Assembly (NCBI RefSeq): GCF_003334315.1
Contig: NZ_QOWR01000026.1
Length of the DNA stretch: 57,948 nt
Direction: 5' to 3' (one strand)
Source of the DNA: Escherichia coli
GTDB taxonomy: Bacteria; Pseudomonadota; Gammaproteobacteria; Enterobacterales; Enterobacteriaceae
In this document: in pieces, positions 16,697 through 16,870 of the stretch
Position numbering within the stretch: position 1 is the first letter of the stretch
How the letters are laid out: the number at the start of each line of letters is the position of its first letter
The notes under the pieces: model-generated
What the model was told of the DNA's origin: nothing
Databases searched by the model: none
Seen by the model: only the letters and a program-made list of their open reading frames with translations
Position numbers and translations under genes: made by a program

Positions 16697-16870
16697 ATGG
16701 CAAACCATCGAGGCGGTTCCGGCAATTTTGCAGAAGACCGCGAAAGAGCATCAGAAGCAGGTAAAAAAGGTGGACAGCACAGCGGGGGTAATTTCAAGAA
16801 TGACCCGCAGCGCGCATCTGAAGCAGGTAAAAAAGGTGGCAAGAGCAGTCACGGCAAAAGCGACAACTAG
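16697..16870 (+). CDS. ymdF: YmdF, KGG-repeat stress-induced small protein, 57 aa
   Basis: ATG at 16697 after GACGGAGG Shine-Dalgarno; MANHRGGSGNFAEDRERASEAGKKGG...; internal 26-bp direct repeat. Confidence 0.8.
   Translation: MANHRGGSGNFAEDRERASEAGKKGGQHSGGNFKNDPQRASEAGKKGGKSSHGKSDN

Follow-up and report, generated by a model that had tools for sequence, protein, structure and literature searches.

Rearrangements that arise by RecA-independent slipped misalignment in Escherichia coli were reportedly reviewed by Bzymek and Lovett in 2001, and Albertini et al. are said to have described, in 1982, lacI deletion hotspots between short direct repeats. The ymdF gene of E. coli, which we investigated here, resembles these systems in its close short repeats, in the exact loss of one repeat plus the spacer, in a junction that lies within the homology and in the recurrence of the event. 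It differs from them in being a natural polymorphism that stays in frame and keeps the protein domain, whereas the others are gene-inactivating lesions or reporter constructs. RecA-independent deletion between short direct repeats has been documented in E. coli K-12 (PMC5426353). Deletions far outnumber duplications in both cases, in line with what has been reported for gapped repeats (PMC4948707).

Phase-variable loci and tandem-repeat typing loci, such as those of the O157 multilocus repeat typing, share with ymdF an in-frame change in coding length and an allele that marks a lineage. In contrast to such loci ymdF contains two units, approx. 67-71% identical, and shows loss only, with no reversion. 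For cagY of Helicobacter pylori, direct-repeat rearrangements have been described that keep the frame and give alternative protein forms, as at ymdF (PMC2194252). cagY has very many repeats and many variants thought to be adaptive, whereas ymdF has one possible product and shows no sign of adaptive use.

The protein belongs to the KGG-repeat or con-10 family, together with YciG of E. coli, YciG, STM14_1829 and YmdF of Salmonella, and PA2146 and PA2190 of Pseudomonas aeruginosa. GsiB of Bacillus subtilis is a further member. The number of units varies in the family: a 114-aa protein of Phytohalomonas has approx. five units, and PA2190 is about twice as long as PA2146. Such differences are known between genes or species, whereas ymdF varies within one species at one locus, recurrently and recently. 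YmdF, like the family in general, has been described as a small, hydrophilic, disordered protein linked to RpoS (PMC9262955; bioRxiv 10.64898/2026.04.09.717482). Deletion of ymdF in E. coli BW25113 lowered biofilm biomass and increased killing by peroxide, tobramycin and ciprofloxacin (PMC9262955). In Salmonella, YmdF is redundant with YciG and STM14_1829 for growth at acid pH (bioRxiv 10.64898/2026.04.09.717482).

From the analysis presented here we consider it highly probable that ymdF undergoes a recurrent, one-way, repeat-mediated loss of one KGG unit, most likely by replication slippage, and that one such event became fixed in typical O157:H7.

Anatomy of the ymdF repeat

The window, i.e. 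the whole stretch of 57,948 nucleotides that was analysed, contains a gene with the product MANHRGGSGNFAEDRERASEAGKKGGQHSGGNFKNDPQRASEAGKKGGKSSHGKSDN. A sequence-only reading of the window had named this gene ymdF, and the name was confirmed both by the RefSeq annotation under matches of 100% ('ymdF: general stress protein / con-10 family') and by synteny, the gene lying at the ortholog position between wrbA (15728-16324, minus strand) and rutG (17128-18570, minus strand). None of the NCBIfam models matched YmdF. A promoter scan at ymdF gave one weak sigma-70-like site, no better than chance, and an Rfam scan of positions 16200-17300 gave nothing within ymdF, the matches being confined to the downstream REP-type block.

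The same reading had proposed a 26-bp direct repeat with one mismatch inside the gene, encoding a duplicated ASEAGKKGG or KGG motif. Both copies of the repeat, GCATCAGAAGCAGGTAAAAAAGGTGG, were recovered exactly where it had placed them, 66 nt apart (Table 1), and both encode ASEAGKKGG, each within its own Pfam KGG match. The copies are identical at 25 of 26 positions, with a single A/T mismatch at 16753/16819, and they share a perfect core of 20 nt. Searching the window for the repeat pattern with up to three mismatches allowed gave 2 matches, with 0 expected from 100 shuffles. Around the core a weaker homology extends over a unit of 66 nt, with 71% identity over 62 nt and 44 of 66 positions identical in codon register.

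Table 1. Positions in the window of the features in and downstream of ymdF.
Feature	Position	Strand	Basis or remark
ymdF coding sequence (57 aa plus stop, 174 nt)	16697-16870	+	ORF, translation, RefSeq annotation, two Pfam KGG matches
KGG unit 1 (aa 10-30)	16724-16786	+	Pfam PF10685, E 7.5e-9
KGG unit 2 (aa 32-52)	16790-16852	+	Pfam PF10685, E 4.3e-9
Repeat copy 1 (26 nt)	16748-16773	+	Perfect core 16754-16773
Repeat copy 2 (26 nt)	16814-16839	+	Mismatch at 16819; perfect core 16820-16839
A6 run in core 1	16763-16768	+	Twin A6 run in core 2 at 16829-16834
66-nt segment absent in one-unit alleles	16754-16819	+	Alignment with O157:H7 strain 1130; strain 162.2
Intrinsic-terminator-like hairpin	17099-17130	+	9-pair stem, 8 G-C pairs, TTTCTTTTT tail

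The mismatch site seems to flip between the copies. In a two-unit allele of strain NY1601 (NZ_CM135959.1) copy 2 matched GCATCA of the probe at 100%; this copy thus has A at the mismatch position, and the two copies of this strain would then agree at all 26 nt. The single copy in two of the one-unit loci (L007 and L015) has the opposite state, T, at this position.

YmdF variants of 62 aa (P0122, P0126 and P0140) were found on 16, 20 and 27 contigs, respectively, and end in ...AGKKVARAVT.KATTSR.NQ. This ending is the one expected from the loss of 1 nt in or beside the A6/GG run, reading into the +2 frame ORF at 16728-16886. Judged from the sequence, positions 16829-16839 (AAAAAAGGTGG of copy 2) may be a second, frameshifting weak point of the same repeat.

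Loss of one KGG unit among E. coli genomes

A 501-nt query around ymdF matched 5,417 of 5,426 complete E. coli genomes. The matches of O157:H7 were the lowest ranked and fell 66 nt short of the query length; ymdF of O157:H7 strain 1130 measured 108 nt, and the alignment showed a single 66-nt gap. Since strain 1130 keeps TCA of copy 1 on the left and GGC of copy 2 on the right, the crossover lay inside the 20-nt core. The breakpoint cannot be placed inside the core, and the absent segment listed in Table 1 is therefore one of 21 equivalent registers. The one-unit product is a protein of 35 aa, MANHRGGSGNFAEDRERASEAGKKGGKSSHGKSDN, which keeps one KGG match (E 1.4e-9).

The one-unit ymdF with the exact 66-bp in-frame deletion was found in 350 of the 5,426 genomes, counted as those in which the 380-nt one-unit allele matched as a single piece. 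With a synthetic 72-nt probe for the one-unit junction, end-to-end matches were limited to 346 genomes, since the other four have T at 16753 as well as at 16840 and thereby offer megablast no 28-nt seed. Sorted by haplotype, 298 of the one-unit alleles had the O157 haplotype, 51 were 95-99% identical to it and one was at 93.5%; these are counts of genomes and not of events, from a collection that over-samples O157:H7 and is biased towards clinical lineages. Seven matches to the ymdF region, and also one of the one-unit alleles, were on records typed as plasmids, which may be mis-typed replicons or chromosomal fragments.

Assemblies can collapse repeats, and such a collapse would make the short alleles artefacts. 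We gave this explanation next to no weight, because the units are just approx. 67-71% identical over 66 nt and the region, at approx. 130 nt, is below the length of one short read. Furthermore, the 350 complete genomes come from many laboratories, the short allele is perfectly consistent throughout the O157:H7 lineage, and in the protein collection it was represented by 1,000 contigs or more.

In the sequence-only reading the repeat had been called a possible hotspot for in-frame expansion or contraction, to be checked by comparing the length of ymdF across strains. The length did vary, copy number being reduced to one unit in 350 of 5,426 genomes and on several independent backgrounds, and the proposed contraction was thus borne out. 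The expansion was not: a synthetic probe for a three-unit junction matched end to end in 0 of 5,426 complete E. coli genomes, and in halves in 5,067 genomes, i.e. 5,413 minus 346. The predicted three-unit YmdF of 79 aa was absent from approx. 15 billion proteins in an exact look-up, a method that misses variants differing by one residue. In a similarity search with the three-unit construct, in which a true three-unit protein would have ranked first, no E. coli protein matched end to end.

Both gains and losses are required of a reversible repeat-number locus, and at ymdF only losses were seen. Such a locus consists of an array of near-identical units; the two units here are identical at 44 of 66 positions. 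A one-unit allele cannot revert because the second copy for the misalignment is gone. We concluded that the site is a one-way deletion hotspot and not a reversible (phase-variable or VNTR) repeat-number locus. The total absence of expansions could reflect selection and not mutational bias.

Independent origins and the age of the two units

Sixteen one-unit loci were fetched, representing approx. 11 near-flank haplotypes (defined over 250 nt to the left and 110 nt to the right of the core); the haplotypes rest on 0.4-1.2 kb of flank and not on whole-genome trees, and some of the approx. 11 may share an event. Private SNPs of the short-allele haplotypes were as close as 1 nt to the core. For four haplotypes two-unit queries were restored in silico (two cores separated by the 46-nt spacer of the window, with 300 nt of flank on either side), and in a fifth case the fetched locus was compared with the window directly. 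Over 686 nt the restored L006 type matched the two-unit locus of at least 15 genomes at 100.0%, and for the L004 type there were likewise at least 15 genomes with a two-unit counterpart at 100.0%. For the GF43 (L008) type the counterpart was strain N3 at 99.6%, and all other genomes were at 98.0% or below. Two units on the exact O157 flanking haplotype (100.0%) were carried by strains 493/89 and LSU61 and by no other genome, and O55:H7 strains, which keep a two-unit ymdF, matched the O157 type at 99.9%. The counterpart of turkey strain 162.2 (L014) was the window itself, with 0 substitutions in 1,246 columns and one 66-nt gap, and the window's own haplotype is thus among those with a short derivative. 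Five short haplotypes are thus matched by two-unit counterparts, exactly in four cases and at 99.6% in the fifth, which puts the number of independent deletions at five or more.

E. coli recombines often, and all but one of the sampled E. coli short alleles encode the identical 35-aa protein WP_001273654.1, as would be the case if a single ancestral deletion had spread among lineages through homologous recombination. Identical short proteins are expected anyway, however, because any crossover in the core yields the same sequence. SNPs specific to the background are found on either side of the core at distances of 1-30 nt (16840T in L006 and L007, 16723T and 16861T in L008, 16855T in L005), and apart from the gap five short haplotypes practically coincide with living two-unit haplotypes over 686-1,246 nt. 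Imported tracts would need to have been shorter than approx. 100 nt each time, and Escherichia albertii and Escherichia fergusonii have separate, species-specific short alleles. Spread from one deletion therefore appears very unlikely to us.

Two strains with a one-unit ymdF, 19AR1321 (L005) and APEC E12053 (O2:K1:H4; L011), have a common near-flank haplotype, and in both of them rutG is annotated as frameshifted, at 788-1181 of the respective locus.

In E. albertii YmdF was found as a 35-aa form on 50 contigs and as a 57-aa form on 643, and in E. fergusonii on 7 contigs as the 35-aa form versus 288 for the 57-aa form. The short forms carry species-specific C-termini, and the E. albertii short allele crossed over in an 8-nt run, AAAAAAGG. 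For one Salmonella YmdF variant the predicted one-unit and three-unit forms were absent from the protein collection, in which the variant itself (55 aa) occurs on just 286 contigs. The place that rutG takes downstream of ymdF in E. coli is occupied in the Salmonella, E. albertii-type and E. fergusonii loci (L020, L022, L023 and L024) by a TetR-family gene in the orientation of ymdF.

The two-unit layout with copy-specific divergence is common to ymdF of Salmonella, E. albertii-type and E. fergusonii and to yciG: two units are ancestral and one unit is derived. Outside the core the two E. coli ymdF units differ from each other at 20 of 39 sites, and each differs from its counterpart in Salmonella, E. 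albertii-type and E. fergusonii at 0-6 of 39 sites. The duplication is thus old, because the units are nearer to their cross-species counterparts than to their own neighbour. In formal terms the comparison is symmetrical, and one could read it as one ancestral unit from which the two-unit ymdF arose repeatedly via duplication. A recent duplication would yield identical units, not units with this divergence outside the core and this closeness to the Salmonella, E. albertii-type and E. fergusonii counterparts, and the paralog yciG has two units as well. Repeated duplication is vanishingly improbable.

Inside the core the relation is turned round: there are differences at 2 of 27 sites between the two E. 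coli copies, against 3-4 between either copy and its counterpart in Salmonella. With the codon usage of 23 long window ORFs, a probability of 0.0058 was calculated for identity at all six full core codons, and the nucleotide identity of the core therefore exceeds what the shared EAGKKGG peptide requires. The longest perfect run between the units is 20 nt in E. coli ymdF, 11 nt in E. fergusonii ymdF, 8 nt in E. albertii-type ymdF, 8 nt in Salmonella ymdF and 11 nt in the paralog E. coli yciG. By these sequences the E. coli ymdF core would be the longest known among the genes and species compared. In unit 1 there is Arg (CGT) in Salmonella ymdF and in E. coli yciG, and Lys (AAA) in all three Escherichia ymdF; the change from CGT to AAA in Escherichia ymdF unit 1 is a three-base change and matches unit 2. 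At one codon of unit 2, E. coli ymdF further reads GGT and ymdF of E. albertii-type and E. fergusonii reads GGA. The four sequences suggest a homogenisation of the ymdF cores within Escherichia, for which conversion of one unit by the other would be the simplest route.

The paralog yciG serves as a comparison, since it has the same two-unit layout of 66 nt with the shorter perfect run. A 201-nt yciG query, for which a 66-nt loss would put the coverage below 80%, matched 4,587 genomes, with a coverage of at least 80% in 4,586. The one remaining genome had lost exactly 66 bp in frame, the crossover lying in GGTAAT. Among complete genomes ymdF thus had at least five deletion events, in 350 genomes, and yciG one event in 4,587, events being counted from short flanking haplotypes; the direction is the one expected if deletions become more frequent with longer homology. 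In the larger protein collection 37-aa YciG forms with three crossover points occurred on 301, 206 and 1 contigs. The contrast between ymdF and yciG is real but not absolute: a long perfect core may help and is not required, because the yciG short forms and the 8-nt contraction of E. albertii exist. The contracted yciG of isolate 23S01245-7 (NZ_OZ197100.1, L019 315-410) is labelled as a pseudogene, 'incomplete; missing C-terminus', despite having its own stop codon.

Probable slippage, O157:H7 and the flanking DNA

What characterises a deletion hotspot was found at ymdF, namely endpoints in direct repeats, exact loss of the repeat plus spacer, and independent recurrence. Our data show the repeat and the exact deletion junction, that the deletion recurred, that two units are the older state and that expansions are absent. 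As to the route, replication slippage is the probable one, rather than another repeat-mediated route such as RecA-dependent unequal exchange or single-strand annealing. In the study by Clayton et al. slips between gapped repeats were almost exclusively deletions (PMC4948707), a bias that fits the absence of ymdF expansions. In the mechanism that we propose, the EAGKKGG nucleotides of two ancient 22-aa KGG units would have become identical in E. coli and thereby formed the 20-nt core. During replication the nascent strand would slip from core 1 to core 2, misaligning the short repeat, and one unit would be removed exactly; the result would be an in-frame gene of 108 nt whose 35-aa protein retains one complete KGG unit. 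The deletion recurs in unrelated lineages and is irreversible, since a one-unit allele has no second copy, and one deletion reached fixation in the lineage that gave rise to typical non-sorbitol-fermenting O157:H7. When the interval was folded as single-stranded DNA, the minus strand reached -12.8 kcal/mol (z = -4.4 versus shuffled sequences). This modestly stable fold might favour stalling or misalignment, and a hairpin-promoted route might be a minor possibility.

Strain 493/89, which we take to be the prototype sorbitol-fermenting O157:H- strain, and LSU61 retain two units, which places the deletion on the branch towards typical non-sorbitol-fermenting O157:H7. LSU-61 has been placed between O55:H7 and both O157 branches (Jenke et al., PMC3309690). 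In the sampled typical O157:H7 the short ymdF is fixed (298 genomes of the O157 haplotype). In the literature on ymdF, also when combined with O157, we found passing mentions and no description of a short allele.

Fixation in these 298 genomes while the basal O157 strains keep two units is what would be seen if the recurrence were driven mainly by positive selection for a shorter YmdF, i.e. by parallel adaptation, for instance in ruminant-associated O157:H7, the repeat being no more than the source of the mutation. Deletion of ymdF alters biofilm mass and the tolerance to peroxide and antibiotics (PMC9262955), and as the deletion has a phenotype a change in length could have one too. Against this, the fixation in O157:H7 is explicable by hitch-hiking in a clonal expansion, and the redundancy of the Salmonella KGG paralogs would weaken selection either way (bioRxiv 10.64898/2026.04.09.717482). 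Outside O157:H7 the short alleles occur as small groups over many hosts, a pattern more in keeping with a mutation that recurs and is neutral or slightly deleterious than with selection acting repeatedly. We regard selection as the main driver as unlikely. Quite unlikely, too, is a non-neutral loss of the KGG unit that tunes a stress and biofilm-tolerance protein, the homogenised core of E. coli acting as a built-in evolutionary switch that works in one direction and on which selection has repeatedly drawn, also when typical O157:H7 emerged. Recurrent repeat-mediated mutation remains our preferred reading.

The general significance is modest, given that the mechanism has long been known; the ymdF site is a previously undescribed instance of it. 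It is a clean natural case of recurrent homology-driven in-frame domain loss within one species, offering an internal control in the paralog yciG and a datable event on the typical O157:H7 branch. The size difference of 66 bp is a simple PCR marker that distinguishes typical O157:H7 from O55:H7 and from strains of the 493/89 and LSU61 types. Results obtained with K-12 YmdF on biofilm mass and on peroxide and antibiotic tolerance may not transfer to O157:H7, which encodes the 35-aa form. Short ymdF and yciG alleles are treated poorly by annotation pipelines. The RefSeq record of strain Sakai (NC_002695.2, 1309087-1309466) has no annotated feature over the one-unit ymdF.

Downstream of ymdF, the hairpin listed in Table 1 is, from its predicted structure, the probable end of the ymdF transcript. 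A REP-type block of 175 nt (16931-17105) lies between ymdF and rutG in the window, L006 and L007 and is absent in O157:H7, L003-L005 and L008. Within it, the Rfam family ES036 barely passed at 16991-17033 on the minus strand (38.5 versus a threshold of 37.6 bits), and naRNA4 matches were below threshold. Upstream, the wrbA-ymdF intergenic region contains a further direct repeat of 22 nt, with copies at 16406-16427 (CAAATTTCACAACCACTTATTT) and 16437-16458 (CAACTTTCACAAGCACGTAATT) that are 82% identical and 31 nt apart; these might be a pair of regulator sites. Isolate 2-101 (NZ_CP053785.1, L002 263-1491) carries an IS2 element just upstream of ymdF. In AUSMDU00014361 (L003) the sequence diverges upstream of the position matching approx. 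16272 of the window and no wrbA is annotated, which suggests an insertion at wrbA, a known Stx2 phage site (PMC3309690).
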